A stretch of DNA of 64,000 nucleotides from a virus, in the IMG/VR virus record IMGVR_UViG_3300025030_000062, positions 30,900 to 94,899 of that record. One strand, written 5' to 3'. Below are positions 2,891-62,620 of the stretch, piece by piece (the stretch's first letter is position 1; the number at the start of each line of letters is the position of its first letter). Both the position numbers and the translations under genes were made by a program. The notes under the pieces were generated by a model. The model searched no databases. It was not told where the DNA came from and saw only the letters and a program-made list of their open reading frames with translations.

Positions 2891-3495
2891 CCATACTAAG
2901 TTTGCCCACATTTAGTAGAACAGCACCGTCCTTTCAGACATTTTCATTGATGCCTAATACGGCTAGTTTCACTTCTCCGCTCAACGGTGCAGTTCAGACT
3001 TCTGAACTTCCTGGTGCAAGGTGGGTGTCAACATTTGGTTGGAATGGTTTGACTGATTTAGATGTTCGTATTTTGAAAGCATGGCTCAACAAGCTCTCAG
3101 GGCGAGCAGGCCGCTTCTACCTCACCGACTATACGCACAAAACACCGTCAGGAACGGCCCAAGGTTCGCCTGTAGTCAACGGGGCGAGCCAGACAGGTCG
3201 TACCCTTGTCACGTCAGGATGGACGCCAAATCAGACCGCCTTGCTCCTTCCTGGCGATTATTTTAGTGTTGGCTCTCAGCTTTGCGTGATTACCGAAACT
3301 GCTTCGGCTGACGGTAGTGGTAATGCTACGCTGACTTTTGAACCTCCGCTTAGGTTAAGTCCTAGCAATGCGCTTACTGTCGTAACCGCTTCCCCTAAAT
3401 GTATAATGATGCTTGAAGATGATAAACAAGACAACTTTCCGTTTCAGGAAAAGAATAACTCTTCCGTCTCAATCAAATGCTTGGAGATGTTCTAA
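2887..3495 (+). CDS. Distal tail protein-like
   Basis: Directly after tape measure; FTSPLNG..QT...GARW, LxGRAGRF, GDYF, FEPPLR motifs recalled from siphovirus distal tail proteins. Confidence 0.7.
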   Translation: MTILSLPTFSRTAPSFQTFSLMPNTASFTSPLNGAVQTSELPGARWVSTFGWNGLTDLDVRILKAWLNKLSGRAGRFYLTDYTHKTPSGTAQGSPVVNGASQTGRTLVTSGWTPNQTALLLPGDYFSVGSQLCVITETASADGSGNATLTFEPPLRLSPSNALTVVTASPKCIMMLEDDKQDNFPFQEKNNSSVSIKCLEMF

Positions 3496-4578
3496 GTGCG
3501 AAGCTTAACTGCATCAGCGAAAAACGCATTTTCACAACTGAACTTTCCATCTTTGGCTCTAGTTGAACTAGACTTTGCTGATGGGTTTGTGAGAGTTTGT
3601 AATGCTGCTTATACTTTTAATTGGGATTCGAAGGGCAATTTAATTACAGATACTGAAGCTCTTTCTTCTCATACTTTATATACGGTAGGTTTGTCGTCTG
3701 AAATAACTGATTTAGGTTCTAGTATTTCAAACGGCGTTGCTCATGTTTATTTTTCTCGTACCGGTACAAGCGGCTCTGATCGAAGAATAAGAACATCAAA
3801 TGGAAGTTATTCTATATCAGTTGATAAGACTCAAGTTTCCACGCTCACATTTGATTTTAAACAAGTACAGGGTTTTGTTGATTTTTATGCACTAGGTTCT
3901 GCTGTTGACGATCAAGCTAATTCACACTCCCGAATTTTTACGATTGCTTCAAACGGAACAATAACCGCTTATTCAGGGTGCTTGATTTCGGATCAAATTG
4001 TTCTTGAAAATGGATTTACACGCATTTCTGTGAAGATTCCAGCTTCTTTTTGGACAGGTTCGGGTGCAACTTTTTATATTTTTGTAGGTGGTGGTTGGAC
4101 TACTGTTGAGACAAAAGAATATTACTACACTAATCCGACGTTTGTTCAAGACGGAACTCAGTGGCTCGGTATCGGTACGCTAGGTTCAATTGAAGCAATT
4201 ACTGAAGGAACTGCGTTACAAATGTACGGTTGTCAATTAACTCTTTCTGGTATTCCTCCTGAAGTTATCAGTGAGGCATTTACCCAAACTTATCAGGGCC
4301 GTTCTGCTACAATCTGGCTTGCACCTTTGACCGAAGATTATGTTATAATTGCCGATCCTGTTGTAGTGTTCAAAGGTAGAATGGATACAATGGATATTGC
4401 TTTAGGTGAGACTTGTACTGTAACCGTTAGTGTTGAAAGTCGCCTTGTTGATTGGGAGCGTCCTAGAATTAGACGTTTTAACGATGAAGATCAGCGTAGC
4501 GAATATCCGAATGATCGTGGATTTAGATATGTTGATCAGATGATACAGAAAGATTTGAAATGGAACCGGAGTAATTAA
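3496..4578 (+). CDS. Tail tip/hub protein (gpL/DUF2163-like) with an inserted ~175-aa domain
   Basis: N-terminal LVELDF..G..R and C-terminal WLGIGTLGSI...LTLSGI...FKGRMD...ESRLVDWERP...DRGF motifs; gene order. Confidence 0.7.
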   Translation: MRSLTASAKNAFSQLNFPSLALVELDFADGFVRVCNAAYTFNWDSKGNLITDTEALSSHTLYTVGLSSEITDLGSSISNGVAHVYFSRTGTSGSDRRIRTSNGSYSISVDKTQVSTLTFDFKQVQGFVDFYALGSAVDDQANSHSRIFTIASNGTITAYSGCLISDQIVLENGFTRISVKIPASFWTGSGATFYIFVGGGWTTVETKEYYYTNPTFVQDGTQWLGIGTLGSIEAITEGTALQMYGCQLTLSGIPPEVISEAFTQTYQGRSATIWLAPLTEDYVIIADPVVVFKGRMDTMDIALGETCTVTVSVESRLVDWERPRIRRFNDEDQRSEYPNDRGFRYVDQMIQKDLKWNRSN

Positions 4579-4983
4579 ATGAGACATCAAGATTGGCCTA
4601 AAAGGTTTAATGCTTTGGTTCAATCAGCTTCAAACAGGCCTTTTGTGTGGGGAAAACACGATTGCTGCTTGTTTGCAGCTGATGTTGTTTATGAATTAAC
4701 TGGTATTGATCATGCTCAGTTTTTGCGCGGTAGATATAAAACTCATCTAGGTGCAGCCAGAATTGTAAAGAAACTAGGTGGTGTTAAAGCTATTGCTGTA
4801 AATGCTCTAGGTGATGAAATTCAGCCGTTGTTAGCCCAAAGAGGTGACATTGTGCTTATAAAAACTAAAGAGTTTGGTGATACTTTGGCTGTGTGTGCCG
4901 GTGAATACTGCCTTGCACCTGGATATGATGGCTTAGCTAAGGTTTCTATTAAAGAAGCTGTTGATGCGTGGAGGGTTGTTTAA
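4579..4983 (+). CDS. NlpC/P60-like tail assembly protein
   Basis: PFVWGKHDCCLFAAD and AQRGDIV motifs; position between tail-tip genes. Confidence 0.75.
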   Translation: MRHQDWPKRFNALVQSASNRPFVWGKHDCCLFAADVVYELTGIDHAQFLRGRYKTHLGAARIVKKLGGVKAIAVNALGDEIQPLLAQRGDIVLIKTKEFGDTLAVCAGEYCLAPGYDGLAKVSIKEAVDAWRVV

Positions 4984-7900
4984 TGCCTCCTTTAGCGGCG
5001 GCTGTTGCTGCTTATCTATCAGTTTCTACAGCAATGGCATATATGGTAATAGTCAGTGCTGTTCTGACGCTAGCCTCTGTAGCTTACTCAGCTTATATGA
5101 TGGCTACAATGGAAGCGCCTGCTCAACCTGACGCTTCTAAACGCTTGCAAACTGTGCGTTCATCTGTACAGCCTCATAGGGTTATCTACGGCGAGTGCAT
5201 GACAAGCGGGGTGCTCGTCTATGCTCAGACTCATTCAATTGATCCTTCTACTGGCGAACTGGACAACGAAGGTGAGAACAAATACATATCACTAGTTGTT
5301 GCTTTTACTGGTCATGAAGTTGAAGAAATAAAAGAAGTTTGGTTTAACGATAAAATTTCTTCAGATTCTGTGTTCATTAAACATGTTAATGCTGTTCCGG
5401 CTGAAGGATATTTTGTAGGAGGTAGTGATTCTGATCCTATAGGAACTTTTGTCGAAACTAAAGCCGCTATTCCTGAACACGATGAAGTTTACGCTACTGT
5501 TTTCAAATACACTGGTACTGCAACTCAAGAAGCAAATGATTTTCTTATAAGTCTTCCGGCTAAACCTTCTAATATTGTTTCTAAAAACCCAACGTCAGGT
5601 TTAAATGATCTAGTTATTAATAATTTTGATGGTTCTCCTTTAGGTCCTTATAATCAGCAAGGAATGTGTTCTATAACTTTAACTGTTACTGATACAGACC
5701 CTTCAGGCGATACAGTTAGTTGGGTTCAAGATATCTATACTTCAGAAGGACTGGTAGCAAATAACGCTTCTGGTACGTTTGTAATGCCTGGACCTGATAC
5801 AGCAATTTCATTGGCTAATGGAATTGTTTTATGGTTCGGTTCTTATGACGGTAGCGGAAACGGCATTAGAAACAATACAGGTCACAGTATCGGTCAAATT
5901 TGGGAAATTCGAGCCTTTGACGGCGCTCCTTGGACTTCGGAATGCAGATTACAAGGAAGATCGTATGTTGTCGCTACTTTGGAGTACAGTGATAAAGCAT
6001 TTCCTACAGGCTTGCCTAATATCAAAGCTTTGATAAAAGGTAACAATCAAATTTATGATCCTCGTACTGATACAACAGGTTATAGTGACAATTGGGCTTT
6101 GTGCGTTCGTGATTATCTTACAAAACCTTATGGTTTAAATGCGCCTGTTTCTGATATTAATGAAACAACTGCTATTGCAGCGGCTAACATTTGTGATGAA
6201 TCTATTGAACTTGCTAATAGCGGTAGTCAGAATCGTTATACTATAAACGGTTCATTCACTTTAGATAAAACGCCTACCTCTATCATGAACGAGATTTTAG
6301 CTACTGCTTACGGGGCTATTACTTGGACGCAAGGACAGTACAGAATCCTTCCAGCAGCGTTTTACGCGCCTGATTTGACGTTTCATGGCATGAATGCCAG
6401 CGTACCAGGGCTGACTGAATCTGATCTAAGAGGGCAACTTAAGGTTCGTCCTGCGCCGTCATTGAAAGATAAATTTAATGCCGTTAAAGGAACTTACGTT
6501 TCGCCTGAAACTTGGCAAATGGTGGACTTTCCTAAAGTTGGCAATGAGTTTTATCAGGATCAAGACGGTTATGAAATAGTAAAAGATGTTCAACTTACTT
6601 ACGTTACCAATTCTGTTAGAGCGCAGCGTATTGCTAAAATAATGCTTGAGAAAAGCAGACAAGGAATAATGGTTGATTTCCCTGCTAAATGGTCTGCATT
6701 TCCTTTAGCGGTGGGCGACGTTGTTCCTATTACCATTGCAAAACTCGGTTGGGATCAAAAGCTTTTTACTATAAGAGACTGGAAAATGCATTCTGAAGGA
6801 GGCGTTGACCTTAGTTTACAGGAAGAAGCTGAAGAGTGCTATGATTGGAATTTTGGCGAGGAAACAACTACTGATTTAGCGCAAGATACCTTATTGCCCG
6901 ATCCTAGATACGTTTCATTAGTTACAGGATTGGTGGTAGGAGAAGAGTTATACGCTACCAATGTGGGCAGCATTGTTAAGTCTCGTGTAATTTTAACTTG
7001 GAACAACATGGGACTTAGACAATACGAAGCTAATTACAAACCTTCTAATAATACTATTTGGACTCCACTTCCTTTAACTTTGGATACAACTTGTGTTGTT
7101 GATGATACGATTCCCGGAACTTATAATTTTAGAGTTAGAGGAATGAACTTTTTAGGCGTATGGGGTGATTGGTCAACTATTAGTTATTTGGTGAAAGGCA
7201 AACTTGCTCCACCTCCTAATGTTGATAGCTTTTTGATCACACCTCAACAAGACGGTACTAGAACACTAAGTTGGCTGATGCATAACGCTCCTTTAGACTT
7301 GGCTGGTTGGAGAATTAAGTTTAGACGTGGCACTGATGCTGGTTTGTGGTCTACTATGACTGCTTTGCATAGCGGTTTGCTGATATCTTCTCCTTTTGAA
7401 AGTAATCAATTGTCGGCAGGTGATTATGTTTTCGGCATTGTTGCTGTTGATACAACTGGTAACGAATCACTAAATCCGCTCTATATTCAAACTACGCTTC
7501 CTGATCCCCGAATGACAAATGTGTGGACATCATCTTTGAATATGGATGGAGATTGGCCTGGAATAAAGATAAACTGTTATGTAAATAGTGAAGGTGCTTT
7601 AGAAGCAAACGATATTTCTTCTTGGAATACAATACCTGCAACCTGGGCTGAATGGACTAGATGGAATTGGAATTCTTTTACAAGCTTTGTTTATGAAACT
7701 TCGTCTATAGATTTAGGTCATTCTTTATATTTTACACCTCAAGTCACAGCCTTTGGAGTAGGAAATATAACAATAGAAATGATTACTTCTTTGGACAATT
7801 CTTCTTGGAATAGTTGGAGTGTTTTAGAAAAAACGCAAGCTCGCTATGTTAAGTTTAAAGCGTCTGTAATTAGCAATGACGCTGAGTTATTTATTAACTT

Positions 7901-9919: not shown

Positions 9920-9929
9920 GGAGAATAAA

Positions 9930-11867
9930 ATGGACCCTCTTCAGCCGATACCCACAACTAACCTAGATGCAGGTAGTGATAGCCCTTTATCCGCTCAGAC
10001 TGATTTACTTGAGGTTGTTCAGCGAATGAATGGTATAGGACTTGTACCTTGTTCGCAATATGGAACGCTAAATCAAGCTGTTATTGCAATCGGGTCTTTG
10101 AAGCGAACATTAGCTTACGGGGCTGATGTTACAGTTTCTGCTAATATTACAATTCCTTCTAATATTGAATTGTTACCTTACAACGATGCTGTTATTAATC
10201 ATTCTACTTATACAATTTCGTATTCAGGTAGCACTGAAAGATGGAACATGAGTAAAAAATTCAACGGTACAGGAGCTATTACTGGATTTAGCGAGGTTCG
10301 CCCTGAATGGTTTGGGGCAAAAGGCGATGACTCTACTGATGACCGACAGGCGTTTATTTGTGCAGCTGCTTCTGGTGGTGAAATAGTTTTAAGAAGCAAA
10401 ACTTATTGGGTGAGCAGTAATATTCCAGTAACCGGCATTTTGCGAATAAGGGGTGTTGGAGAAAATTCTTCTATTCGGTGCAACGGATACGCGTTTACAG
10501 TTACCAACGGTCATTATTCTCATTTGGATAATTTCGCGTTTTTGGCTCCTACTGGCGCGTATATGGTAAACAGATGGGCTGCTAACGGTGATTGGCTCGG
10601 TACACCTGTTTACGGATATAATTTGACTGAAGGTTATCAAATGACCGGGAATGATCCTGAATGGGAAGGGTTGACAGCGCCTCAAAAGACGTATGTAGTC
10701 ACCGGAATTAAGTTCATTACGTCTAACAAAGTTAAAGTTTCGCGCATATACGGGCGATTTGTGAGTTTGTGGCTAAGTGATAGTAACGATTCTTCAGTGG
10801 AGCGTTGCAGGTTTCATGGTGGAGCTACCACTTACGGAGGTATTTATTTTGGGGCTACCGCTGCTACAAAATTACAAGGAAATAAAGCTCACGGCAATAC
10901 GGTCATGTATTCATCTAATTGCGGGATAACTTATGAAGGTCAAGATGGAATAAGCATTACAGGAAACACAATCAGAATGTGTGGTGAATCTGGCATTAAA
11001 CAGATGCAGAATACTTACTCTAGTCTGTATTCGTTAGTATCGGATAATATCAGTAATTCTAACTATTATGACGGCATAGATTTATTAACCAACTTTCCCG
11101 TTACAGGTTCGGCTTCTCCGTCAGCTTGTGTTGTAAGCAACTGTGCTAAAAACAATAGATTGTCGGGTATTAATATAGAAGGTACTGGAAATTTAATACA
11201 AGGAGGTGTTATCTCAGGTAATGGTGCTTTTGGAATATGGGGTATTGTGTCATACTCTACGATCATGGGCGTAATGTTACCTAATAATAATAAAATCGCT
11301 ACGGCCGGATACGCTTCTTTGTATGTAGAAGGTAATAACAATACAATAGCAACTAACAGCATAAATAATACTGCCGCTGGTTATTTAGTAAACAACTGCA
11401 TGTTTGTTAAGGGTAATAATAATAAGTATTACAATAACGATTTGTATACCAGTAATACTACGTCCCTTTATGTAGAAGGAACTAATAACATCGGTTGGGC
11501 CAATAAAGGGCTAAAAGCGGTTAACGGAACCTCTCTTGATAGGTATAACCGGCTTATAGTTGATAATATGGAGCAAGCAGGTGATGATGTGGGTATTGAC
11601 TTTGTAGTGAGATGGGGTATGCGAAAACCTACAGGTAGTATTAAGTCATTGTTGACTAATGGTGTTCCTGGTAGCGAATATTCCAATATGTATTTTTATA
11701 CATTAGGTAACGGTACTGAAATCAATCCTCTTATTTTAGGCGGTGACGGTTATATTAGTATGCCAGCTATGCCTGTTTATGCCGATAATGCAGCTGCTGT
11801 TGCTGGTGGCAGAGCAGCGGGTAACTTGTATCGAACTGCCGCAGGGGATTTGCGAATAGTGTATTAA
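9930..11867 (+). CDS. Second tailspike, parallel beta-helix
   Basis: VRPEWFGAKGDDSTDDRQAF motif; Asn/Gly-rich beta-helix repeats; C-terminal YADNAAAVAGG...G.LYRT. Confidence 0.75.
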   Translation: MDPLQPIPTTNLDAGSDSPLSAQTDLLEVVQRMNGIGLVPCSQYGTLNQAVIAIGSLKRTLAYGADVTVSANITIPSNIELLPYNDAVINHSTYTISYSGSTERWNMSKKFNGTGAITGFSEVRPEWFGAKGDDSTDDRQAFICAAASGGEIVLRSKTYWVSSNIPVTGILRIRGVGENSSIRCNGYAFTVTNGHYSHLDNFAFLAPTGAYMVNRWAANGDWLGTPVYGYNLTEGYQMTGNDPEWEGLTAPQKTYVVTGIKFITSNKVKVSRIYGRFVSLWLSDSNDSSVERCRFHGGATTYGGIYFGATAATKLQGNKAHGNTVMYSSNCGITYEGQDGISITGNTIRMCGESGIKQMQNTYSSLYSLVSDNISNSNYYDGIDLLTNFPVTGSASPSACVVSNCAKNNRLSGINIEGTGNLIQGGVISGNGAFGIWGIVSYSTIMGVMLPNNNKIATAGYASLYVEGNNNTIATNSINNTAAGYLVNNCMFVKGNNNKYYNNDLYTSNTTSLYVEGTNNIGWANKGLKAVNGTSLDRYNRLIVDNMEQAGDDVGIDFVVRWGMRKPTGSIKSLLTNGVPGSEYSNMYFYTLGNGTEINPLILGGDGYISMPAMPVYADNAAAVAGGRAAGNLYRTAAGDLRIVY

Positions 11868-12326: not shown

Positions 12327-12734
12327 ATGGCTAACAATCTTAAACTCAGTAACGCAACGGTAGATGTTCAGGGTGATGCAACTGCAACTCTGTTCGACAA
12401 CGGTTATCTTCGTATCTATGATGGTAGTCAGGCTGCAACTGCTGATACCGCCGTAGGCGCACAGGTTCTGCTTGCCGAGCTTCGTTTTGCGGCTACCGCA
12501 ATGAGTTCCAGCACTAACGGTGTGCTTACTGCTGCTGCGCTTACCGCTGATTCTTCGGCCAATGCTACCGGTACCGCCTCTTGGTATCGTTGCCTGAAGT
12601 CTGACGGTACTACGGTTATTTGTGACGGCTCTGTGGGTACTTCTGCTGCTGATCTTATCCTTAACTCTGTTGCTATTAGTTCCGGCGCAGCTGTTTCGGT
12701 TTCCTCGTTCACTCACACTATTCCTAAAGCGTAA
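12327..12734 (+). CDS. Small virion structural protein
   Basis: GYLRIYDG...LAEL...ANATGTASWYR...DGSVGTS.ADL.L motif; RBS AAGGAG. Confidence 0.6.
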   Translation: MANNLKLSNATVDVQGDATATLFDNGYLRIYDGSQAATADTAVGAQVLLAELRFAATAMSSSTNGVLTAAALTADSSANATGTASWYRCLKSDGTTVICDGSVGTSAADLILNSVAISSGAAVSVSSFTHTIPKA

Positions 12735-14402: not shown

Positions 14403-17350
14403 TGCTAGTCATCTATTGTTCCCCCAACGGTATCGGGGATGGGCAACTGACCAGTCCTTGCTCATTTCTAGCCGCGAAGCAGATGGTTATCGACTCCGCT
14501 CATGATGGCGACATCGTGGTACGTATGTTTGGGGGCGTCTACGAATTTGACGCCACGGTGACGTTTACCTCCGCCGACTCGGGAAAGAATGGTCATAAGG
14601 TATATTGGGTGGCCCATGATCCAGCTAATCCACCGGTTATCTCCGGCGGCAGAGCTATAACTGGTTGGGAGCTGGATACTAGCGCAAGGGCGACTGGTAA
14701 GAATATCTGGAAGGCTCCAGTCCACGTGGACGCAGCCAAAAATTTTTGCGTCAATGACCACCAAGCGAAGATAACCAGCAGGTTTGTGCAGCCTCAATAC
14801 ACTATACCTTACATCGATGGCTTACACGAATTCATCTTCACCATAAACGACGCCTCGTTCCCGGAACTGTCACGTCCCACAGATGCCTCGCTTTGTGTCT
14901 GGACCATGGTATGGAGCAGATCGACAGCAGCTCTCACAACATATAGCAGATCGGGAGACGTGACCACGTTCCGGGTGGACCGGGGCTTCTCCACCAATAT
15001 TGCGGAGAACGTGGACGGGATAGACGAAAACGTCCCTCTTGATGCCGCCAACCGCACAGCCATAGAAAATGCTTTCGAGTTTCTTTCCGCTGACACCAAA
15101 GGGTATGGCTACATAGACACCACCGATCACGTGGCCTACTACGTACCTCTGGACGGCGAGGACATGACTCAGGCGACAGCCCATGCAGGTATCCGGGAGA
15201 AAGCCTTAACCTTGAATGGGGCAGTGGGTGTCTTCTTTGGCGGAGTGCAGTTTGCCCACACTAAATGGAATCCTTCGGCGTGGTTTGGGGGAGTGGGAAA
15301 CCCTACCGTGCCACTTGACGGGCCTCTCTGGGCGGAACTGTTCTTTGAGTTAGGTTACACGGCTGATCTTATGCCACCTGCTGTTGTGGAATGTAGATAT
15401 TCGGAACATATTGGATTTCAGAACTGCCGTATTAAACACGGCGGCGGCGACGGTTTGGCAATTCTTGAGGGGTCCAAACACGTAGACCTGAGACATTCCT
15501 TAGTGACCGAGATATCTTCCAATGGCATTACTGTGGGAACACGCCTCAGCACCACCCCTCAGACATCTGACCAGGTTAGTTTCATAGCAATTGCGGATAA
15601 TATCGTCACTAAAACCGGTTATGGCTATCTCGGTGCTCTCTCCATCTTCACAACTGTTATGGACCACGTGACTATACTTCGTAACGAGGTATCTTACGCA
15701 CCGTACAGTGGGATTGGATGGGGCCAGGGCGGGCCGGTCTGTTATACCAACAACATCGAAATAGCCTACAACAAGATACATCATATATTTGACCACCCCA
15801 CCATAGCTGACGGCGGGGCCATATATGGCAATAGTCAAACGGATGCTGTGGCTATCCATGACAATTACCTGTACGACAACTTTGCCATCTCGGAATATCA
15901 GTTCGGAAATGCGTTGTATTTCGATGAAGATGCATCTGGCGTCACCTACTACAACAACGTCATAGTAGAATCAGCCGCCATCGCAGCCATAGCGCCTGTG
16001 GGGGAGCACGTCTGGCTGGGCGGAAACAGCGCGGGGGTGATAGCGTACAACAACTATGCCTCGAACCATATGATCCTTAACTGGCCTCCGTGGGTAGGGG
16101 AAGTTCCGACCGCCGACGAGGCTATCCAATTAACGGGTATTGATCCCGCAAACTGGCCTGTGGCAGCACGCAACATTGCTCTTGCCTCCGGCCCGTCGCC
16201 ACTGCCGGAAGTCAGTTTGTTTATCCTTCCCGATTCCGCCACTACCCTAACCGTCCCTGCCACTTCGTTCACCGCCACGGACGATGTGGCCGTGACAGGC
16301 TACTTGATAACCGAGAGCAGCACCCCGCCGCTAGTTACCGATCCGGGGTGGAGCGCGACTGCACCAACAGAGTTTACTTTCGCAGGTTACGGCAACCGCA
16401 CCGCATGGGCCTGGGTTAAGGATGGCGATGACAACGTGTCGGCGGGGGTGAGTGCGAGCACAACTATAACTTCATCGCCTTATACAATAGCTTTTGCTCA
16501 ACAACCAACAATTCAATATATCGTTGATGATATCGTAACATTAAGCTATGATACTATTACTTTAGGTGCTGAACAAGTTCAAAGTATTCAAACTCAAGTC
16601 ACAACAGCAACTCAAAGCTTTATTGGAACTTTAGCACAATCGCAAGCTAAACAAACTGAAGCTGTTGTAAGCTTGCAAAGTATTGCGGGTTATGTTGCCA
16701 CAACTCAAGCTAAACAATCCGTTACAATAGCAGGAACACCACAATTTAACGGAGTTATTGCCCACAATCAACCTATACAAATAACACAAGCTTCAACTCA
16801 ACAAACTATAACAGGCTCAGTTACAACAGTTCAACCAATAGCTTCACAAACAGCAAACGGTTCTTCAGCCGCTGAGCCGACATTAGCTTTCGGCCAACAG
16901 CCTGTTTTCAGCAACGGTATTATTTATTACGGCACTGAGGATTTATTTGCTGGTTTTGAAGGTACGATAATTCAACTTACGCCGGTTCAGCAGCAGATAG
17001 TTGAAGCAAGCTTAGGATTTACCGGAACCGTCGCTGAAAGCCAGAAATCAGCCGCTCAGAATGCCCTAGGGAGCCAAGTTTTTACCGGAGCCTTATCAGG
17101 GTATCAGCTAATTCAGGAGCAAGCGGCCTTGGCGCTGCCTGAAGCCGTAACGCAAGCGCAGCCGACTCAGCAGCAAGCAGTAATTAGCACTTTGAGCTTT
17201 ATGGGAGTTGTGAGCCAAGGTCAAGCGGTTCAATTGCAGCGGATTACCAGGATTGCTGAAGCTTTAGACTTGAAGATTAGCGTTCGTGATCCATTAACGT
17301 TGAAGATTTCTGTTCGTGATCCATTACAGCTTAAGATAACAGTGAATTAA
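14399..17350 (+). CDS. Right-handed beta-helix protein fused to an Ig-like domain and Gln-rich repeats
   Basis: YCSPNG.GDG....P, PVISGGRAITGW, DGGAIY, LYFDE beta-helix glycoside hydrolase/lyase-like motifs; Gln-rich C-terminal third. Confidence 0.65.
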   Translation: MMLVIYCSPNGIGDGQLTSPCSFLAAKQMVIDSAHDGDIVVRMFGGVYEFDATVTFTSADSGKNGHKVYWVAHDPANPPVISGGRAITGWELDTSARATGKNIWKAPVHVDAAKNFCVNDHQAKITSRFVQPQYTIPYIDGLHEFIFTINDASFPELSRPTDASLCVWTMVWSRSTAALTTYSRSGDVTTFRVDRGFSTNIAENVDGIDENVPLDAANRTAIENAFEFLSADTKGYGYIDTTDHVAYYVPLDGEDMTQATAHAGIREKALTLNGAVGVFFGGVQFAHTKWNPSAWFGGVGNPTVPLDGPLWAELFFELGYTADLMPPAVVECRYSEHIGFQNCRIKHGGGDGLAILEGSKHVDLRHSLVTEISSNGITVGTRLSTTPQTSDQVSFIAIADNIVTKTGYGYLGALSIFTTVMDHVTILRNEVSYAPYSGIGWGQGGPVCYTNNIEIAYNKIHHIFDHPTIADGGAIYGNSQTDAVAIHDNYLYDNFAISEYQFGNALYFDEDASGVTYYNNVIVESAAIAAIAPVGEHVWLGGNSAGVIAYNNYASNHMILNWPPWVGEVPTADEAIQLTGIDPANWPVAARNIALASGPSPLPEVSLFILPDSATTLTVPATSFTATDDVAVTGYLITESSTPPLVTDPGWSATAPTEFTFAGYGNRTAWAWVKDGDDNVSAGVSASTTITSSPYTIAFAQQPTIQYIVDDIVTLSYDTITLGAEQVQSIQTQVTTATQSFIGTLAQSQAKQTEAVVSLQSIAGYVATTQAKQSVTIAGTPQFNGVIAHNQPIQITQASTQQTITGSVTTVQPIASQTANGSSAAEPTLAFGQQPVFSNGIIYYGTEDLFAGFEGTIIQLTPVQQQIVEASLGFTGTVAESQKSAAQNALGSQVFTGALSGYQLIQEQAALALPEAVTQAQPTQQQAVISTLSFMGVVSQGQAVQLQRITRIAEALDLKISVRDPLTLKISVRDPLQLKITVN
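17270..17344 (+). repeat. 2.5 x 30-bp tandem repeat encoding LKISVRDPL
   Basis: ttgaagattagcgttcgtgatccattaacg / ttgaagatttctgttcgtgatccattacag / cttaagataacagtg. Confidence 0.85.
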
Positions 17351-17389
17351 ACTAAAGCCCTCGCTAAGCATTAGGAGGGCTTTAGTTTA
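17348..17389. terminator. Bidirectional intrinsic terminator between convergent modules
   Basis: TAAACTAAAGCCCTC-12 nt-GAGGGCTTTAGTTTA, perfect 15-bp inverted repeat between two stop codons. Confidence 0.85.
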
Positions 17390-17674: not shown

Positions 17675-19726
17675 CTAAAAGAACTTGATTTGTTGCTCAC
17701 GTTTGTAAAACCCAATATCGAAAAGTATGCCGTTAGTAATGCTTATATACTTCTCGTAATCAACATCCGTAGGAAACTCTTCAGGTAAATCCATACAAGG
17801 TCTACCGCCTTCTGAATTTGCTACTTTGTTACCGTTAGAAATGTAGCTTATACAGCCTTGCTGATATTTAGCGTAATAATATCTTACAACCTTGCCTAAG
17901 TAAAAACCATCTTTCTCAGCACCGCCTTTTACGTTCATAAGTGAAATAAACCGTCTGATATCAGTACAACTTTTAATAGTTTCCTCTACAGGTATATTGT
18001 GGGTAAGCAAAGCTATTACTGCGTCAGAACAAACTAAATGTTGCGGGTTTTTAGATAACACGCTATTTAAAGCTGAACCGCGTTCGGCGTAGCGGCCTTT
18101 GACCTTACAACCCATTCTATCGTCAAAGAATTCAGCCTTAGCATCACCTTTCTCCTTAATTGCGAGATAATTGTTAACATCAGCTGAATATATGGCTTTA
18201 TAGCGCGTTTCTTCTGTTTCAAAACCAGTTTCTTGTTCCCATTGTTTAATAACTTGAAGTAGTTCGTCATACTTTTCAACAGGACATTTCATTACTATTC
18301 CATCTGTATTTCCAGACACTACAGGTATGCCTACAAGTTCGATCATTTCAATTAGCATTAATAACGAAAGTTGACCAGTAAGCGTTACTGTGATCATAAG
18401 CTTCGGTGAATAGAAACGCGAATATTTAGAACCTAAAAGACCGAATCCTGCATTGATTACAATTTTCTTGGAATCTGTTTCAACCTTAGCTTTCTTCAAC
18501 TCAGCTTTTATAGTTTGGTTCTGTTCTATTATCTTTTTAAGCTTGCCGACTTTATCTTTAGCATCTAACCTTTGTCTAACAATCGAACTGTAAACTGTAA
18601 GAAAGGGAAGACCCATGTTTTCAGGAAACAATTTCAGATTCAGAACTATATTAGGATAAAAGCTTGCAGCGTCAACGTCAAGAAGCAACACTTCTTCAGT
18701 AGCCACATGAGATGCGGAACTTTCAGTGCTATGAAGACCGCCTATCGTTAAGTTGTAATTCGATATTCCTATTGATAATTGCAAATTATCAATGCTTTGT
18801 GGAATTAAAACTTTACCTGTATCTCTTACTACAAATTCGGCATCGCGTACAACTTCAAGCATATGCTGCAATACCGGAGTTTTGTATTTAATAAAGCCGG
18901 GAATGTCATATTTGAAAGTAGTTCCAGGTTCAACTGTTTGACGTTTAGGATTGCGTCCGGTGATTTTAGCAACTTCTGAACACACGACAGTTTCCGAAAT
19001 CTGTGCGTCACCTTTCGATCTTAAATCCATTCCGTAATAAAGACTAAGTTCTGCTCTAAGTTCCAATTGTGGGCACAATTCTTTAAGCAAAAGCGAAGTA
19101 CATTCAAGATCGTTTATGCAATAAAGGCGTACTGTATCACGCTGAGCTTGAGTTAGATAAGTGTTAGGATTATAAGGAAGGTCTTGCAATCTAGGTGCAT
19201 GTAAACGTCCAGCGTATGTTTTCAAAGAAGCCGAAAGAGGGGCTACTTCAATAAGGTCGATATGGTTGATTTTGCCGCATTTGAATGAATATGCTTGTTC
19301 AATATCTCTTATGCGCCAATTACCTTTAATTATAAAATCAGTTACGTTTTTAAGTGCCTCGTTATTAGCACCTTGGAGCGCAAGCCATAATAAGGGTAAG
19401 TCGAAATTAGCTGAGTTAAAACCTACATGACATCCATTGTGCAATAGCCAAAGCAACTTGTGTTTATCAAAATCTTTTTCAGGAGTTCGTTCGAAATAAA
19501 CAACTTGTTTAGTGGCGTAGCATTGAAAAGCTGCTAGGAAATACCCCGGATAAATTTCAAGGTCGTAAACAAACACGTTTCCTTTTGCTTCGTATAACTT
19601 TTCATCTGTAAATTCAGTAAAGTTTATTTCTTTACGCTCTAATGCAACTGTTAGTGTTTTACCTTGTCTTTTAATAGGAACAAGTTCTTCATCGGTAAAG
19701 AACTTGTTAGGAGCTAATCGGTTCAT
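17675..19726 (-). CDS. DNA polymerase, family B, with 3'-5' exonuclease
   Basis: YDLEIY (ExoI), GFNSANFD (ExoII), YCINDL (ExoIII), DAASFYPNI, KIVINAGFG, NTDGI; ATG at 19726 with RBS AAGGAG. Confidence 0.92.
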   Translation of the reverse strand: MNRLAPNKFFTDEELVPIKRQGKTLTVALERKEINFTEFTDEKLYEAKGNVFVYDLEIYPGYFLAAFQCYATKQVVYFERTPEKDFDKHKLLWLLHNGCHVGFNSANFDLPLLWLALQGANNEALKNVTDFIIKGNWRIRDIEQAYSFKCGKINHIDLIEVAPLSASLKTYAGRLHAPRLQDLPYNPNTYLTQAQRDTVRLYCINDLECTSLLLKELCPQLELRAELSLYYGMDLRSKGDAQISETVVCSEVAKITGRNPKRQTVEPGTTFKYDIPGFIKYKTPVLQHMLEVVRDAEFVVRDTGKVLIPQSIDNLQLSIGISNYNLTIGGLHSTESSASHVATEEVLLLDVDAASFYPNIVLNLKLFPENMGLPFLTVYSSIVRQRLDAKDKVGKLKKIIEQNQTIKAELKKAKVETDSKKIVINAGFGLLGSKYSRFYSPKLMITVTLTGQLSLLMLIEMIELVGIPVVSGNTDGIVMKCPVEKYDELLQVIKQWEQETGFETEETRYKAIYSADVNNYLAIKEKGDAKAEFFDDRMGCKVKGRYAERGSALNSVLSKNPQHLVCSDAVIALLTHNIPVEETIKSCTDIRRFISLMNVKGGAEKDGFYLGKVVRYYYAKYQQGCISYISNGNKVANSEGGRPCMDLPEEFPTDVDYEKYISITNGILFDIGFYKREQQIKFF

Positions 19727-42122: not shown

Positions 42123-43397
42123 TTGAATACTCAAGAACGCTTAGAAGCTGCTTACCGTGAAAATCCTTCTATTGGTCGCAAACTACTAGCTAAAGCTGCT
42201 AAATGCAGCCTCGGTCCAGCTCAGAGGTTCTTGGAGAAGAAAAGAGGAATTAAGCCTAGAACTAAAGTTAAAACTGAAACTGAACACAAAGATGAAGTAA
42301 ACACCTTATTTAACAAAGACGCAGCAGAAGTTACGGTTAACTCGTTACGTGTAATATCCCTTGATGATGCTTTACGTATATCAAAAGTAGACCTTTCTCT
42401 TTATGAGGTTGATAGATACGTTGTCAACGCCTGGGAAGTAACTATTAAAGGTGATAACGGACCTGAACAAGCAACGAACCATCAAGTTAAGGTTTGGCTC
42501 AAGCGTTTACATCCTGCGATTACCGCTTTCAGCAGACTGATTGAACAAGTTGAATCGCGTCCTGCTTGCGCCAGGGATCATGCACCACTACCCGAATTAG
42601 TCGATCCTCATATGTTAGAAATTTCTCTAATGGATCATCATTTTGGCAAGCTGGCTTGGCGGGGCGAAACCGGCGACGATTACGATCTTAAAATAGCTCA
42701 GCGAATCTATCAGGCTGCTGTGAGAGACTTGTTAGCTCGCGCTAAAGGCTACAACATAGGCAAAATACTCTTTCCAGTGGGTCAGGACTTCTTTAACATT
42801 GACAACAACGCAAACACTACTACAGGCGGCACAGCTCAAGATTCAGATGGTCGGCTTGCTAAAATCTTTGAAATAGGCTGTAATGCAGTAATTGATGCAA
42901 TTGATTACTGCTCACAGGTTGCTGAAGTTGAAGTTATCTACGTTCCTGGTAATCACGACTACACTACCAGCTATTACCTCGTTAAATATCTACAAGCTTG
43001 GTATCGTAACTGTGAACGTGTAAGTATTAATGCTGTACCCACAAGCAGAAAGTATATCAAGTACGGTGTTAACCTGCTCGGCTTTAGTCACGGCTGTGAT
43101 GAAAAGCGCGATTCGTTGCCGCTTATTATGCTCAGTGAATGCAGAGATATGATCCAGGATGTTAAGCACTTTGAATTTCACACTGGTCATTTGCATATGA
43201 AGCGCGAAACTAAGTATGTTGCCGGTGATAGCTTCGGGCCTGTGATAGTTCGCATATTACCTTCGTTGTGTGGCACTGATGCCTATCATTATAAAAAGGG
43301 CTACACGGAAGGTAGGAAGAGTGCTGAAGCTTATCTTTGGAGTGAAATGAACGGCTTTGTTGCGTTGTTTAACGTTTATGCGAGGAATTATGAATAG
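42123..43397 (+). CDS. Calcineurin-like metallophosphoesterase with N-terminal HTH-like region
   Basis: DHHFG, GQDFF, GNHD, SHG, GHLH metal-binding motifs. Confidence 0.85.
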   Translation: MNTQERLEAAYRENPSIGRKLLAKAAKCSLGPAQRFLEKKRGIKPRTKVKTETEHKDEVNTLFNKDAAEVTVNSLRVISLDDALRISKVDLSLYEVDRYVVNAWEVTIKGDNGPEQATNHQVKVWLKRLHPAITAFSRLIEQVESRPACARDHAPLPELVDPHMLEISLMDHHFGKLAWRGETGDDYDLKIAQRIYQAAVRDLLARAKGYNIGKILFPVGQDFFNIDNNANTTTGGTAQDSDGRLAKIFEIGCNAVIDAIDYCSQVAEVEVIYVPGNHDYTTSYYLVKYLQAWYRNCERVSINAVPTSRKYIKYGVNLLGFSHGCDEKRDSLPLIMLSECRDMIQDVKHFEFHTGHLHMKRETKYVAGDSFGPVIVRILPSLCGTDAYHYKKGYTEGRKSAEAYLWSEMNGFVALFNVYARNYE

Positions 43398-48454: not shown

Positions 48455-50518
48455 TCAGTTACTCCTTTTTGTAGTTTCCTGAACTTGAAAGCCGCGAAGA
48501 TATACACTTAGCGCACAAGTTAAATTTTAATTCAAATTCAATCTTAGATATTTCAGAACGTATAAAAAGCTTATGAAAGCCAAGTTTTGCTCCACAATCC
48601 TTACAGGTCATTTAATCATCCCTCCTACAATAGCACGGAAGTTCTTTAGTTCCGCAAGATGTGCAATACTCACGAAATACGTCTAAGCGTTCTTCGTCGC
48701 TGAGCAGCGAAAGCAGATGGTGAATTGTAGCTATAATTGAAGCGTTCGGGCCAATATTAGGATTAGGACGAATACGGCTGTTCGCCGCAAGAGCTTTATC
48801 CTTCTGCTCAAGGTGAATTCTAAAACGCACTATATCCGTCCTAAGTTCGTCTCGTTCTTCTTTGACATCAGCAAGCTCATTCTTCAATCTACAAATAGTG
48901 CAATTCTGCTTATCATAATGAGAGTGATTACCTTGATGCTTTTCGCATAAATGTTCACCTTCTAAAGCTTTGCTCATTTAATCCTCCTTAAAGTAATTAG
49001 CAATGCACCCCAACACAGCCTTTACCATCATTAGCTCTATTAGGCGCAGATTTAGTCAACTTACTAGCTTCCCATTTATCTAAAATCTTACGATATTGCT
49101 CGGTCTTGGAAAAGCTACCGGCGGCAGATTTGTTGTCAATATTAACTCGCACAGCGCCATTGCTACCTAGGAACACGTATCTGACATGAATAATACTATC
49201 TGACACAAACGTTAGTGCAAACAGCCTGTAATTCGTGTTTTTGTACGGCATCTTTTTGTATCCCATTGCCAGGAAATAAGCCTCGAAACGTTCAAGCAAC
49301 TTTTTCATTTCTTACTCCTTTCAGGCGGCAATTAACCGCAGTTAAGAACTCCTACAGCGTGCTAGCATAATACCACATTCAGCCAAAAGTTCAAGCGTTT
49401 GGCTACATTTTAATTTCAGCATTAAACTCTCCTGTTTCATTTAAGTGAGCAATTGACGGCAGTTAAGGGTTGAGCGGCGGCAGTTAAGCGTCTTTACAAA
49501 AGCGGGACCAGTAAAGCATTTCCAAAAGCTGCATACCGCCAACTTCATAAATAACATGAGGTTTGTATACAATAAACTTTCTACATCCGACATTGAAGAA
49601 TGTGAACGGCTTACAATTTCTATGATCGTTAATTGCTTTGCTTACCTTAGCAGCATAGCCGGTGTTTTGCGTTATCATTACTCACCTCCTTGATTCGCCC
49701 ATTGCTGTAAGGTTATTGCAACTTTCTTACCTTCGCCATAGCTAACCCATATCCAAGGTAAGTGTAATGCTTCGCGCCAGCAAGCTTGAAGATAGCGCCG
49801 ATAAGCTTCGGTTGCCTGATATTCCCGCACTATTCACCTCCCTGATTAACCCACTCTTCAAGTGTAATGATACACGGCGTAATAACAGGTTCGCTAAACA
49901 TAAACTTAAGCTCAACTTCATAGTAAACAATTACGCAATTTGCGGTTGCTACGTATTCAATTGTTCGCATTATTCACCGCCTTGGTTCAACCATTCTTCA
50001 ACTTCAATAATTGCAATTCTATGAACATACTTGTCTAAAGGAATAACTACAAAAGGCAGTCCATCTTTACGATTTTTAGACATGCTGGCTAACCCGCGCC
50101 AAGTTGTAATCATCACTCCAACACCTCCCTAACCCAAATTCGTTGACCGCTTGCCGATGTGCCGAATGACATAGCGCCAGGGCTTTCTGTTCTACCGTAA
50201 TACGTTACATCATCGGGAAACTTGGCTATCATAAACTTCTTAAGCGCGGCGTGCATTGATCCGGCTGTAACGATTAATTCAGTTTTCTGCTTATTGCTGT
50301 TGCCGTGATATAGTGATATTTTGAAGGTTCTGGTCATTGTTAAACCCTTTCTATTAGCTTATTATTCTTGCCGTAAATTCGCTTCATGCTTTCTTTAAGT
50401 GCATTATACCCACAATATTTACAGTGAAAGTAGTTCAGCATGAATTCATCACCTCGCCGCTTGGTAACTATTTCAATGATGCTGTGAAAGTCAAAGAAAC
50501 ATTTGAGGTGCTGAAGTG

Positions 50519-51130: not shown

Positions 51131-51775
51131 AACTTTCTCCTTATATTGTGGGCAATCTAAAGCAGTTAAGTAGCAATCGGCGGCAGTTAAGCGTCAAACC
51201 TGCTAATTATTTCTTTGATCTTTCGTAAATCTTCACCGCTAGCCCATTGACCTAATTCAACTAACAAGTTAGTCATTTCGGTGTAAGTAGGCAAGTTTTC
51301 AGTTCTAAGCCATGCGTCACAGCATTCTATCACGTAAGCCTTTTCAATTGTCATGCTAACCTCCCTGTTGAAGCTAAAACAGCCGCCAACATGCTATCGA
51401 AATACCTCGTAACTTGCCTAACAACCTTATCCTCATTACTCAGTTGCTTGATATCGCGCCAATTCAATTTCTCCCTCTTGCTACCGGTCCAGTAGCCAGC
51501 AATAGAGCCGTCTAATGTAAGGTCGCTAATGCTACCGTCCGTATTCTTGACAGAATAAATCAAGAATATGGTATGTCCTGGATCATTATGAATGATGTGA
51601 TTCGGCCAGTTGTCAGGACCGGAACCAAGCGCGAAAGATACGATCAGGGACGGCCTATTTTCGTTTTCTAGCGTGCTTACCTTGAAGTGCAGGTACGAGT
51701 CAGGGAAGCGAGCTTTGATGACCGCTGAGAGCCTATTTTGGAGCGTTTCTAGGGTTTGCATGGTTTAGACCTCCT

Positions 51776-53715: not shown

Positions 53716-54054
53716 CTAGCTATTTGCCCACAATTGAGCACATTCAGGACAACGTTCAATCAACAGTTCTAGCGATAATTCTTGATCAACTTTAACCTCT
53801 TGCTGTTCAACTGGCAGATAGCTAAAGTCAGGCTGTTCAAGCGGCAACATATGATTGTAACCTCTAGCTAGCATTTCATCGGCCAATTCATCATGCCTAG
53901 CTTTGTATGATCCAGGCTCAATAGAGTTAACCGCTATGCGTCCTGTTATGGAGTGTTTCTTTTGCCAGTTATGTAGGAATTTGTGATGCTCATTATGTTC
54001 TCCTAATAAATGCTGTCTGCACATCACTTTAGGGTCTAGCAGCCACATTCGCAT
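53716..54054 (-). CDS. Pyrimidine-dimer DNA glycosylase (endonuclease V family)
   Basis: MRMW......CRQHLLGEH.E and RH..L..EM..RGY.H motifs. Confidence 0.7.
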   Translation of the reverse strand: MRMWLLDPKVMCRQHLLGEHNEHHKFLHNWQKKHSITGRIAVNSIEPGSYKARHDELADEMLARGYNHMLPLEQPDFSYLPVEQQEVKVDQELSLELLIERCPECAQLWANS

Positions 54055-54452: not shown

Positions 54453-54797
54453 GGTTTGTTATCTCCTTTATTGTGGGCAGACTGACTCTTTGTAGTAGTC
54501 AGTATAACCTTTAGTTTCAAGGTAAATTTCTCTGACAAGCTTTGTTATTTCTTCAGGTTGTTCACATTCGCTATCAAGGCCGATACAAGCTATACCGTTA
54601 ATATGTAAACCTAAGAACGTATCTTTATGCGGCATTCCGTCTAAACAAAGTGTTCCTGCTGCAAAGTAAATTGCTCCTTTAGGCTTTATTTCTTTGTTAA
54701 GTATTTTCTTAACTACTTTCCAATATACAGTCATAGCACTATCTCCTTTTATTAGCTGATTCGTCAACAGTTAATAGTTAACAGTTAAGCCTTAACC

Positions 54798-55839: not shown

Positions 55840-58374
55840 TCCGGTATCTCCTTAGTAGTTAGTCAGTCCTTGACAGTTTAGTTAGTCAATCCTTGACAGT
55901 TAACAACTCGAAACAGTTAAGAGTTAGCAATTAATCGTGATAGCAGTTAGCAAACCTAGGCAATCCCGTTACCTTTTGCCATTCCCGAATGAAAGCTAAA
56001 GCATACCTCTTGCGCGGGAATTCACCGGCAATAAAGCCTTGGTAATCGCTGTTACCCTCTAAAACCTCATAGAACTGTTTGCCGTTTTCATGCCAATTCT
56101 TAGCCAAGAAACAGCCTTTAATGGCGTTATGTTTCAGGTATTGAGTTCTAAGGCACTCGGAAACAGTTATAGCGTTTATCATGGCTTCAGGCTCCTTTAG
56201 TGTGGACAAAGGCTAGCGGTTAAAAACCCACCACGTTATCATTAGCTATCAAGTTTCTACAATCCCATTTTCTTAACTCATTTGGAGCGGTATCGTTCCA
56301 TAAAATCCGCTGTTCATCCCATATAAGATCGTCAATGATTTGATCGATTGTTTTACTCATTGTTTGCACTCCTTTATAGTTTGCCCACAAATAGGCAACA
56401 AGAAACAGTTAAGGCAAAGCTCGACAGTTAAGCGTTAGCCGGTCTAAGCCGTTCCAAGATCATGTGAATTTCCCCTTGCCTATCCATTGACAAGTTACGA
56501 AAAGCATCTTTGTTGCCGTTCTTTAGCATGTTAATTTCTTTCCTGGTTAGTTCAGCTGATAAGCGTTTGAAGTATCCCATTGTCTTAGGCTCCTTTAGAT
56601 AAAGTTAGTTAACAGCTTTAAGTTTATTTACCATTTCTTTAGCATCGTTAAATATCGAATTTACCCAATTATCTTTAATCGGCATTCTGTCGCCTTTAAA
56701 ACATTGTAATTCAATTAACCTTTCTAGCATTCTTACAATCTCGTTGTTATCGCACATTTTAAAGGCTCCTTTAGAAAGTTAGGTTATTCGGCTCGATTGT
56801 CTTTAACTTCAAACTTAAACAGCTTGCCGTTTTCAAATGGACCAACAAGAGATTTGATCACAACAAGCTGGCTTGTATCGTCAAAGCGATAAACCGTTCT
56901 TTCTTCATTGTTACACTTGGTTGTTACTTGCTTAAAACCGTTAACGTTAAAAGCTATGCAATCTTTCACTTTGTTATATTCGTCGCGTGCTAGGCTCATT
57001 TTAAACCTCCTTAAATCCCTGGTTAATGGCCCACTATCACTTTGCCGGTAACTTGCCGTTTAAACGGTATCCTTAAGCCTTAAACTAATACTCTTGCTCG
57101 TTGTAATTATCAGCTATCTCTTGCCAGTCAATAGCGCCGATAGTCCAGCTTTCAAGTTTAAGCTTTCTAGCTTGAAACGTCGCTTTAACTCTGCTAGCTA
57201 AAACTTTATCGCCAGCTTTGCGAATAGCCGAAATAGTCTCATAGCTAGGCTGATCTTGCTCTAATAACCATGCTGCATTCCACGTTCTGCTATTCGTCCA
57301 TCCTTCATAAATTTCATCGACAGAAACAGCTTTAACAAGCTTATCATGTGGGCATTCTTCAGTATCACCAAATTGAAAGGCTTTGCCTAAGTAATACTCT
57401 TTTGCGCCTTTCAAGTCAGTATTCAGGCTAGTTACTATTTCGTTTCCATCGGCGAACTTAATTTTAAATGTTTTCATCGTCGTTATCTCCTTTAAATTGG
57501 CAAGCTGTGACAGTTAAGAGGCAAGGTAAAACAGTTAAATATAGTAAATAGCTCCTTCCCTTTTAAAATAACCAGCTTCATTATTATTGTCTGGTTCACC
57601 TTTAAAACATCTAAATATCTTAACAAGTTTACCCTCATGTGTTACAAAGCGAGAATAAAGCTTATAACCGTTTTCTCTTTTCTCTATTTCTTTCCAATTA
57701 GTTTTACGTTCCATTTCGTACTCTCCTTTTAACCGTTAGTTTCTTGCTACTTCGCTGCATAGCTTAAAAGTTAAGTTAAGCTATGCAAGGTAATAGCATG
57801 AAAGCTTGTTAGGCTTTGAGCTTATAAATCCTTTTCCCTGGTTACATCGGAAACGGTAAAGTAAAACTTATTTCTGTTATCCCTTTGGAGCTGGCAAAAC
57901 TCGTTATATTCAATTCCTTCAAAATATCCCTTATTTTGGAGCATAGTAAATGCCGTTTGCTGGTACGTATCACCATAGCCGTAATGTTTACCCGAATTAC
58001 CCAAATATACACCGTCAACAGTAACTGATACAGAATGATATGTATTGCCATATGATTTTTGAAACCATCGTTTGCCGTCAATTATAATCATGTTAAATGC
58101 TTTCATTTGTCCTATCTCCTTATTACTCGTTAGTTGCGCCGAAATGCTGGTTTAAATGTCTCGTTTAGTGCCGCGCGATACCTTGATATCAAAATCGTAT
58201 TTATCAGACTCTTTGATCCTGGCAATGAGCATATTTTCAATCTCTTGCTCAGTTAGTTCAAAACCGTTAGCAATGTGATTAAGCTTGATACTGATTTTAG
58301 CGTTATACGTTTTAACTCTCATTTTAATTACTCCTATAGTTGAAAGTAGCGACAGTTAAAGCAACAAGTGACAG

Positions 58375-61970: not shown

Positions 61971-62045
61971 TTATCCACAACTTTATCCACAACTTCAAAT
62001 TTCAGCCTTATTTCAATAGTTTAGTTAACTTTTGCTTGTTGATAA
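61971..62045. promoter_or_regulatory. DnaA-box cluster with an IHF-like site
   Basis: TTATCCACA at 61971 and 61983; TTTCAATAGTTTA (62011-23) near WATCAA-N4-TTR; inverted one-mismatch box TGTTGATAA at 62037. Confidence 0.7.
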
Positions 62046-62173
62046 CTCACTTCAGGATATTGCCTTAATACCGTGATAAGCATTAAACCCCATAACCGAT
62101 TTAAACAGCATCCTTGCTCGTTTAAAGCTATAATGCAATCTTTCATATGTCTATCATTTCAGCCAATAACGGT

Positions 62174-62220
62174 ATACTAGATATAGTGGTTCATTTGATC
62201 TATACCGCTATATCTAGGCG
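62174..62220. promoter_or_regulatory. Tandem NrdR boxes
   Basis: ATACTAGATATAGTGG (62174-89) and CCGCTATATCTAGGCG (62205-20) fit the 16-bp NrdR consensus with 31-bp start-to-start spacing. Confidence 0.7.
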
Positions 62221-62620
62221 TTACATTTTGGAACAATTTAGGCTCGTTTCCGGCCAATGTTTCCATAGTGCAAAGGTAAGGTTTAATTCTATACCAGTTT
62301 GATAGAGTTTGATTGTTCATTGCTTTGATAGGGAATTGTTTAACGGTAACTGACTAGACAACTCCATTAACCGTTAGTTCATTTGTTTACTTGATTATTG
62401 AATTTGATATATGCGGAAAGTTGAATGTATCCAGGCAAATTAGGATCGGCGTTAGCTCCTCTCGATCCTGTTCAGCTGTTGACGAATTGCCCACAATTGG
62501 AGCGTGCACCGTCTCGTTTCTAGCTATGTCTATTTGTGGGCAATGCTAGCGTATAGGGTAAGGGATTAGGACCGGCTGTAAGGCCATTTAGGACGCTGAT
62601 TATCGATGTTATAGACGCGA

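Follow-up and report, generated by a model that had tools for sequence, protein, structure and literature searches.

Why should a word of eight bases recur about once per 2 kb along a phage genome, within genes as well as between them and on both strands? The question is raised by a stretch of 64,000 nucleotides (hereafter, the window) that covers bases 30900-94899 of the 94,899-base phage contig IMGVR_UViG_3300025030_000062 from the IMG/VR database, a genome of 94.9 kb. A preliminary description of the window, made from its letters alone, had pointed to an over-represented 10-mer, TTGCCCACAA, occurring in both orientations. All 10 exact copies that it gave are found in the window, on the plus strand at positions 16758, 22502, 33541, 53724, 56381, and 62487 and on the minus strand at 40077, 46136, 51146, and 62534. 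Its seven copies with one mismatch (2902, 15252, 19067, 27083, 39606, 46065, and 54471) are present as well, and four further copies of this kind, at 714, 17997, 32659, and 63605, are to be added to them. Likewise, both inverted pairs of sites that it had noticed, 46066/46137 in the primase gene and 62488/62535, are real. The core unit of the repeat is the 8-mer T[G/A]CCCACA, which is found at 47 sites genome-wide, 32 of them inside the window. The core word TGCCCACA, read as TGTGGGCA on the complementary strand, occurs 33 times in the genome where 1.08 copies are expected (30-fold enrichment), and TACCCACA occurs 14 times against 1.39 expected. With its weak flank preference, the consensus is (A/T)T-T[G/A]CCCACA-(A/T)T, and the quasi-palindrome suggested earlier arises because the flanks of the core weakly prefer A/T bases. 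Conservation of the flanks ends about 2 bases beyond the core on either side, which rules out a longer repeat or a mobile element.

The word is neither a product of chance nor a by-product of coding; it is a selected signal at the DNA level. In dinucleotide shuffles of the window, TTGCCCACAA is expected 0.07 times and appeared at most once, versus the 10 copies observed. In the whole genome, 14 exact copies stand against 0.13-0.24 expected under Markov models of orders 0-3, and the word ties for the commonest 10-mer. Markov models of maximal order are uninformative for the 10-mer, whose sub-words already carry the signal; the shuffles and the models of orders 0-4 together rule out chance or base composition as its source. 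About 34 of the 47 sites lie within genes, in all three frames, and 13 are intergenic or at gene edges; relative to local transcription, 22 are in sense and 25 in antisense orientation. When synonymous codons were shuffled within genes, the number of T[GA]CCCACA sites fell from 47 to 18.4 ± 2.1. Since 13 of the surviving sites are the untouched non-coding and edge ones, about 34 coding sites are to be compared with about five expected. The enrichment thus persists under a codon-aware null, the check that had been proposed for it, and a coding artefact is ruled out by this shuffle together with the use of all frames and both orientations.

Furthermore, the sites are conserved individually. A close relative, IMG/VR contig 3300025030_000289 (35.5 kb; hereafter, G001), is collinear with positions 19247-54108 of the window. 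Of the 10 alignable sites, nine are kept in G001 while their flanks are only 79-95% identical. Eight of the 10 are identical, versus 3.8 expected (P = 0.006), and the ninth has changed from TGCCCACA to TACCCACA by a synonymous TTG>TTA replacement, a G>A change that the motif permits. Stretches unique to either genome bear motif copies of their own. Conservation of intragenic copies in relatives, the other check proposed at the outset, is therefore seen as well.

The word is not confined to these two genomes. When IMG/VR was searched with a primase profile, 80 loci were retrieved, and TGCCCACA tops the over-representation of 8-mers in most of them at GC contents of 34-57%; a scan of metagenomes yielded a single 3-kb contig. 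With the first cultured genomes added, 85 loci of the same GC range have 533 copies of TGCCCACA against 27.8 expected. In Pseudomonas phage 73, TGCCCACA occurs 19 times where 0.26 are expected, and in Rhodobacter phage RcTitan 17 times versus 0.29. Acinetobacter phage Loki has 13 copies (0.95 expected) together with 20 copies of AATGTGGG (0.88 expected). In Escherichia coli phage JenP1, whose primase is about 27% identical, a one-base variant, TGACCACA, is found 31 times versus 2.3 expected, accompanied by TAACCACA (19 versus 2.8). The same variant is enriched in Vibrio phage pVco-14 (31 versus 2.0) and Stenotrophomonas phage Siara (35 versus 1.8), and the Salmonella myovirus KE26 has ACCCACAA (24 versus 1.65). 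Records that seem poor in the motif bear the variants CCCCACA, GCCTACA, or CCCACAG. On the G-rich strand, 5′-TGTGG-3′ is retained in nearly all lineages, a few having TGTAGG, and the three bases on its 3′ side differ by lineage. The hosts are alpha-, beta-, and gammaproteobacteria, and the variant tracks the phage lineage or its replication module, not the host. The motif is assigned here to a large clade of tailed phages that includes Septimatrevirus, Lokivirus, Titanvirus, Queuovirinae, Beaumontvirinae, Rosemountvirus, and many uncultured relatives.

Spacing and orientation of the sites were compared in eight genomes, namely those of this phage, phage 73, Loki, RcTitan, JenP1, pVco-14, Siara, and KE26, in which site density is 0.5-1.0 per kb. 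The coefficient of variation of the gaps on each strand is 0.28-0.60, versus about 1 for random placement, and 14 of the 16 strand sets are more regular than chance (p < 0.05), many of them at p < 0.001. Neighboring sites on the same strand keep apart from each other, and the orientation of successive sites alternates beyond chance: the runs-test z is 2.7 for this phage, 3.3 for JenP1, and 4.9 for pVco-14, and it reaches 4.4 when uncultured relatives are pooled by Stouffer's method. Both strands are used: 20 sites are on the plus and 27 on the minus strand in this phage, and KE26 has 15 and 15. The G-rich reading favors the sense strand of structural genes, clearly in five of the six genomes counted and marginally in pVco-14 (23 versus 21). 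In the coding regions of all eight genomes, 125 sites are in sense and 135 in antisense orientation. By the crude open reading frame caller behind these site statistics, 81-94% of sites are in genes and the intergenic share is 6-19% of sites versus 4-10% of sequence, and there is no real intergenic excess. Such regular spacing on each strand points to replication or recombination rather than to gene control.

The motif-bearing phages share a replication module, which consists of a family A DNA polymerase, a clamp-like processivity factor, a superfamily 2 (SF2) helicase beside a Cas4-domain nuclease, a single-stranded DNA-binding protein (SSB; DUF669), Sak4, and a primase-helicase. In the window, the polymerase (17675-19726), the SF2 helicase (26906-28618), and the Cas4-domain exonuclease (30404-31411) are encoded on the minus strand and the primase-helicase of 863 residues (45156-47747) on the plus strand. 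The polymerase is excluded as the reader of the word because two genomes dissociate it from the motif: phage phiAxp-2 has a polymerase 37% identical to the one here, lacks the primase family, the helicase, and Cas4, and has no motif, while KE26 has the motif, the helicase, Cas4, and a remote primase (profile E-value 2e-24) together with a non-homologous polymerase. Moraxella phage Mcat26 has clear homologs of the helicase (E-value 8.5e-69) and of Cas4 (2.4e-54) and no primase of this family, and it shows no motif (TGTGG 77 times versus 74 expected). This single case speaks for the primase over the helicase-nuclease pair. The motif was seen in all genomes with a full-length primase, including the remote KE26, and phiAxp-2 and Mcat26 are the only two motif-free controls. 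A target for 7-deazaguanine modification by DpdA was also considered. Genes of the DpdA type (queuine tRNA-ribosyltransferase) are annotated in JenP1 and pVco-14, and the genes of this phage were partly scanned for them; the candidate is rejected on account of phage 73, Loki, RcTitan, and Siara, which bear the motif and have no annotated gene of this type.

The primase-helicase, which was missing from the candidates of the preliminary description, is the best-supported reader. It matches phrog_3022, and its predicted layout is an N-terminal archaeo-eukaryotic primase (AEP) domain, a helix-bundle domain of the NrS-1 type, and a C-terminal DUF3987/D5-like helicase. A profile built from 14 relatives matches, over the N-terminal approximately 250 residues, the structures of the NrS-1 primase-polymerase (6A9W, 6K9A, and 7RR3; E-value 3e-33) and the primase chain 7OLA (8e-47). 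In a pairwise alignment to NrS-1 gp28 (1e-19), IDMD pairs with IDLD and SPSGFGLH with SPSGDGLH. By sequence comparison, the domain is thus assigned to the AEP catalytic fold, with the acidic DxD and SPSG-GLH motifs. The helix-bundle domain PF22763 is hit at residues 244-274 with 23.4 bits, below the cut-off of 27.9 bits, and is recorded among the precomputed domains of many relatives; the alignment to NrS-1 stops where it begins. In this enzyme family, the helix-bundle domain binds the recognition site on the template: pRN1 ORF904 requires 5′-GTG-3′ in the template, and the best sites of NrS-1 are 5′-GTGG-3′ and 5′-GTGA-3′, the start site found first being 5′-TTTGGTTA-3′, with synthesis beginning at the base that adjoins it on the 5′ side (PMC8718748). 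The motif, read on the G-rich strand as 5′-T-GTGG-GCA-3′, contains the GTG element of the family and has an invariant T at the NrS-1 start position. A second variant of JenP1, TGTGGTTA, is one base off the NrS-1 8-mer.

We therefore propose that the dispersed sites are template recognition and priming sites of the phage's own primase-helicase, a reading that we hold to have about as good a chance of being right as of being wrong. We infer that the primase, rather than another protein of the module, is the reader, and that the word is read as single-stranded template. The recognition sequence would be 5′-(A)(T/A)T-GTGG-G(C/T)A-3′ on the G-rich strand, the single-stranded template word being 5′-ATTGTGGGCAA-3′ (or TGTGGTCA), and the primer would start opposite the T immediately 5′ of GTG. 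If the primase reads about eight bases, chance would offer approximately one site per 65 kb per strand; because of this need, the genome itself would have to supply the sites, and selection would have planted them on each strand at intervals of 2-5 kb, both within genes and in spacers. Any passing fork, whichever its direction, could then find a place for discontinuous or restarted synthesis to begin, and priming would, as a side effect, be confined to phage DNA. Extending this to a priming code of the whole clade, in which the AEP primase-helicase needs an 8-base word kept evenly spaced on both strands, is a more tentative step that we would put somewhat below an even chance.

Compared with the characterized AEP primase-polymerases, pRN1 ORF904 and NrS-1 gp28, the primase shares the type of catalytic domain and may share that of the helix-bundle domain, for which its score is below the cut-off, and the core 5′-T-GTGG-3′ contains their GTG(G). 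Their sites differ from the present word in being defined in vitro and effectively 3-4 bases long, with no genome-wide enrichment or spacing reported, whereas the word here spans 8-11 bases, is 20-70-fold enriched and evenly spaced, and has a putative link to its primase.

Several observations weigh against priming by the primase-helicase. The characterized relatives need only 3-4 bases, and a requirement for eight is therefore an extrapolation. The primase, the SF2 helicase, and Cas4 always occur together in the clade (the helicase in 29 of 29 near-complete records), and the sole dissociation from helicase and Cas4 is that in one temperate phage, Mcat26. Dispersed motifs were found neither in the genome of NrS-1 nor in that of phage Sasha, which has only the N-terminal primase domain in common; an apparent GCCTACA motif in the latter turned out to be a 30-bp tandem repeat. 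NrS-1 has instead 11 copies of AAGTGTAACC, pointing either way, in a stretch of 310 bp (17062-17371) directly after its primase gene, which is very likely its replication origin. This repeat contains the GTG that the NrS-1 primase reads in vitro, and the cluster points to double-strand origin binding as an alternative reading of GTG words. Finally, a single bidirectional origin predicts sites on one strand per arm, but both strands are populated throughout. Forks moving in both directions must thus be assumed, for example, by recombination-dependent replication, with which they would be expected given the Sak4, SSB, Cas4, and helicase genes.

The word might be read by the SF2 helicase and the Cas4 nuclease jointly. 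These would resect DNA ends, stop at the oriented word, and hand the product to annealing by Sak4 and SSB; phage DNA would be repaired and host DNA without the word destroyed. The Chi-like signal of the preliminary description survives in this form, as a rival that we consider unlikely. The two genes adjoin each other and were seen in all of the motif-bearing genomes that were examined, and the even spacing on two strands would also be favored by an orientation-dependent signal that is needed on both sides of a break. In a related Pseudomonas phage, the helicase, the Cas4 nuclease, the DUF669 SSB, and Sak4 are physical interaction partners that repair phage DNA after cleavage (PMC13687109). 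Like the Chi sites of RecBCD and AddAB, the word is short, asymmetric, over-represented, and dispersed through genes, with a helicase-nuclease pair in its module. Chi differs in being a host signal with a one-strand bias per replichore, in varying among taxa, and in that even spacing is not known for it. Among bacteria whose RecBCD or AddAB enzymes are similar, Chi words vary widely, whereas the core is nearly constant here down to 27% protein identity, and we know of no Chi-like control of Cas4-type phage nucleases. Mcat26, a single counter-example, has clear homologs of both proteins and no enriched word, and the match of GTG(G) to the primase family would then be a coincidence (about 4% of random 8-mers hold GTGG on one strand or the other).

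Alternatively, the word may be a double-strand, iteron-like site for the primase-helicase or another phage protein, serving as dispersed helicase-loading points or in genome organization. We regard this as improbable. It is favored by the origin repeats of NrS-1, by related self-loading primase-helicases that bind short repeats at origins, and by the close inverted pairs 46066/46137 and 62488/62535. The alpha protein of P4, for example, binds the octamer TGTTCACC. The origin iterons of NrS-1, of P4 alpha (type I), and of the SaPI Rep proteins resemble the motif as short words read by a primase-helicase, GTG being part of the NrS-1 repeat, and differ from it in being element-specific and clustered at one or two loci. 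Origin repeats usually cluster and change fast between relatives, whereas the present word is asymmetric, dispersed, evenly spaced on each strand, and conserved clade-wide. Another protein that could bind it is the product of a small helix-turn-helix gene. Such a gene is annotated beside the primase gene in phage 73 and Loki, but the annotation of RcTitan has no counterpart at this place, and no such gene was detected in this phage.

We think it quite unlikely that the word is the site of a phage nicking enzyme by which one strand of virion or replicating DNA is interrupted, as happens in phages T5, tf, and Rembedalsseter. HNH and VRR-NUC nuclease genes are present in the clade, and the nick motifs of that group (WACTRTGAC/TACTRTGMC) are the closest parallel in print: their 9-base word is about 10-fold enriched, lies inside and outside genes, and is family-wide regardless of nucleotide similarity, WACTRTGAC being conserved in some 60 related phages of Pseudomonas (PMC11780129). 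Those known motifs, however, keep to one strand, cluster toward one genome end, and belong to another phage group with other replication genes, whereas the sites here are even and on both strands (20 and 27 in this phage). To our knowledge, nicks have not been reported for phage 73-like phages or Queuovirinae, a weak argument, as nanopore work on the latter (PMC10484667) was not searched for them.

Least probable of all is an operator, roadblock, promoter, or RNA element or a decoy for DnaA or another host protein: several early-gene copies do lie 16-21 nt before start codons, and the word matches the DnaA box at seven of nine positions, but the counts of orientation and location given above rule out the former, and the latter, like a host uptake or Chi word, is ruled out by a word that follows the phage clade across proteobacterial hosts at GC contents of 34-57%, as TGCCCACA or TGACCACA, and departs from the canonical T at position 4 of the box TTATNCACA, where this phage has C and JenP1, Siara, and pVco-14 have A. 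Packaging or partition marks are single or clustered, and the even dispersal of the sites speaks against them. Thus, from the preliminary idea of a selected protein-binding site, the selected signal stands, on the codon shuffle and the conservation, and the roles as operator, roadblock, packaging or partition mark, and host decoy fall.

Literature searches for the word gave primer sequences only, and no paper was found that names the motif or reports for these phages any motif with even spacing and alternating strands. The specificity of AEP primases, Chi, and nick motifs are known, and the genome-wide lattice of sites and its clade-wide breadth appear to be new. If priming by the primase-helicase is the correct explanation, lagging-strand initiation or fork restart would be hard-wired in the sequence and denied to host DNA, and a primase would, for the first time, be seen to have shaped a whole genome by its specificity, as a replication enzyme so specific that a regular lattice of sites evolved through hundreds of codons. 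The lattice would then be a sequence-level read-out of the spacing of Okazaki fragments, and the choice of start sites in vivo, Okazaki-fragment length, and discrimination between phage and host DNA could be tested in phage 73, Loki, and JenP1. It would also provide a simple genomic marker of the replication module, and primase specificity could be predicted from sequence alone. Even with a helicase-nuclease or a nicking enzyme as the reader, the clade-wide, evenly spaced, strand-alternating 8-mer adds a robust and new feature to phages that are well known.

The individual sites in the window are as follows. The cores within the exact 10-mer lie on the plus strand at 16759-16766 (10-mer 16758-16767), 22503-22510, 33542-33549, 53725-53732, 56382-56389 (intergenic), and 62488-62495, and on the minus strand at 40078-40085, 46137-46144, 51147-51154 (16 nt before a start codon), and 62535-62542. 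Those at 22503, 33542, 40078, 46137, 51147, and 53725 are conserved in G001. Other copies of TGCCCACA are found on the plus strand at 2903-2910, 15253-15260, 27937-27944 (helicase gene), 39607-39614 (thyX gene), and 46066-46073. The last one, in the codons for L-P-T of the primase gene, is the inverted partner of 46137 and the site that has become TACCCACA in G001. On the minus strand, TGCCCACA is located at 715-722 (antisense in the tape-measure gene), 6962-6969, 19068-19075 (polymerase gene), 27084-27091 and 28484-28491 (both in the helicase gene, the former being the sole aligned site lost in G001), 41834-41841, 54472-54479 (at a gene junction), and 57347-57354. Finally, TACCCACA occurs on the plus strand at 9949-9956, 38136-38143 (ligase gene), 43036-43043 (conserved in G001), and 50407-50414, and on the minus strand at 11588-11595, 12632-12639, 17998-18005 (polymerase gene), 32660-32667 (intergenic, directly upstream of a ribosome-binding site), and 35914-35921 (intergenic and conserved in G001).

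Some features around these sites are worth recording. The inverted pair formed by the left arm at 62488 and the right arm at 62535 (62488-62542) lies in a gene-poor block, about 450 bp from a cluster of DnaA boxes (61971-62045), and the block is a candidate origin region. Early-gene junctions between 49329 and 58380 (for example, 51160-51175) bear CTTAACTG boxes, and the motif copy at 51147 is flanked by one of these boxes and the ribosome-binding site. Between this phage and G001, the primases are 78% identical and the DNA polymerases (17675-19726 in the window) only 51%, and the module is thus mosaic even among close relatives. Two primase homologs, of 1109 and 1122 residues, carry PF05203/PF05204 and PF14528, which we take to be domains of the homing-endonuclease or intein type; if so, inteins would target the primase gene in some relatives.

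Other enriched words were met in the course of the survey. In IMG/VR record 3300050132_000164, TACCCACA (11 versus 0.8 expected) is accompanied by a second word, ATGCCACATCGA (CCACATCG, 11 versus 0.5), whose G-rich strand contains TGTGG. The genome of pVco-14 has, as a second strongly enriched word, GCCAGGC/GCCTGGC 50 times versus 4.8 expected, overlapping the Dcm-type CCWGG site. Four relatives (L016, L017, L018, and L060) have the 8-mers CGGGGTCG and GGCTACGG at 11-13 copies versus 0.1-0.5 expected, which probably belong to longer repeats or to terminators. Vibrio phage 1218, which is unrelated and lacks this primase, has moderately enriched words of its own, CAGTACCG (16 versus 1.1) and AGCCCGGC (14 versus 1.0), and dispersed clade-specific words may be common among phages.

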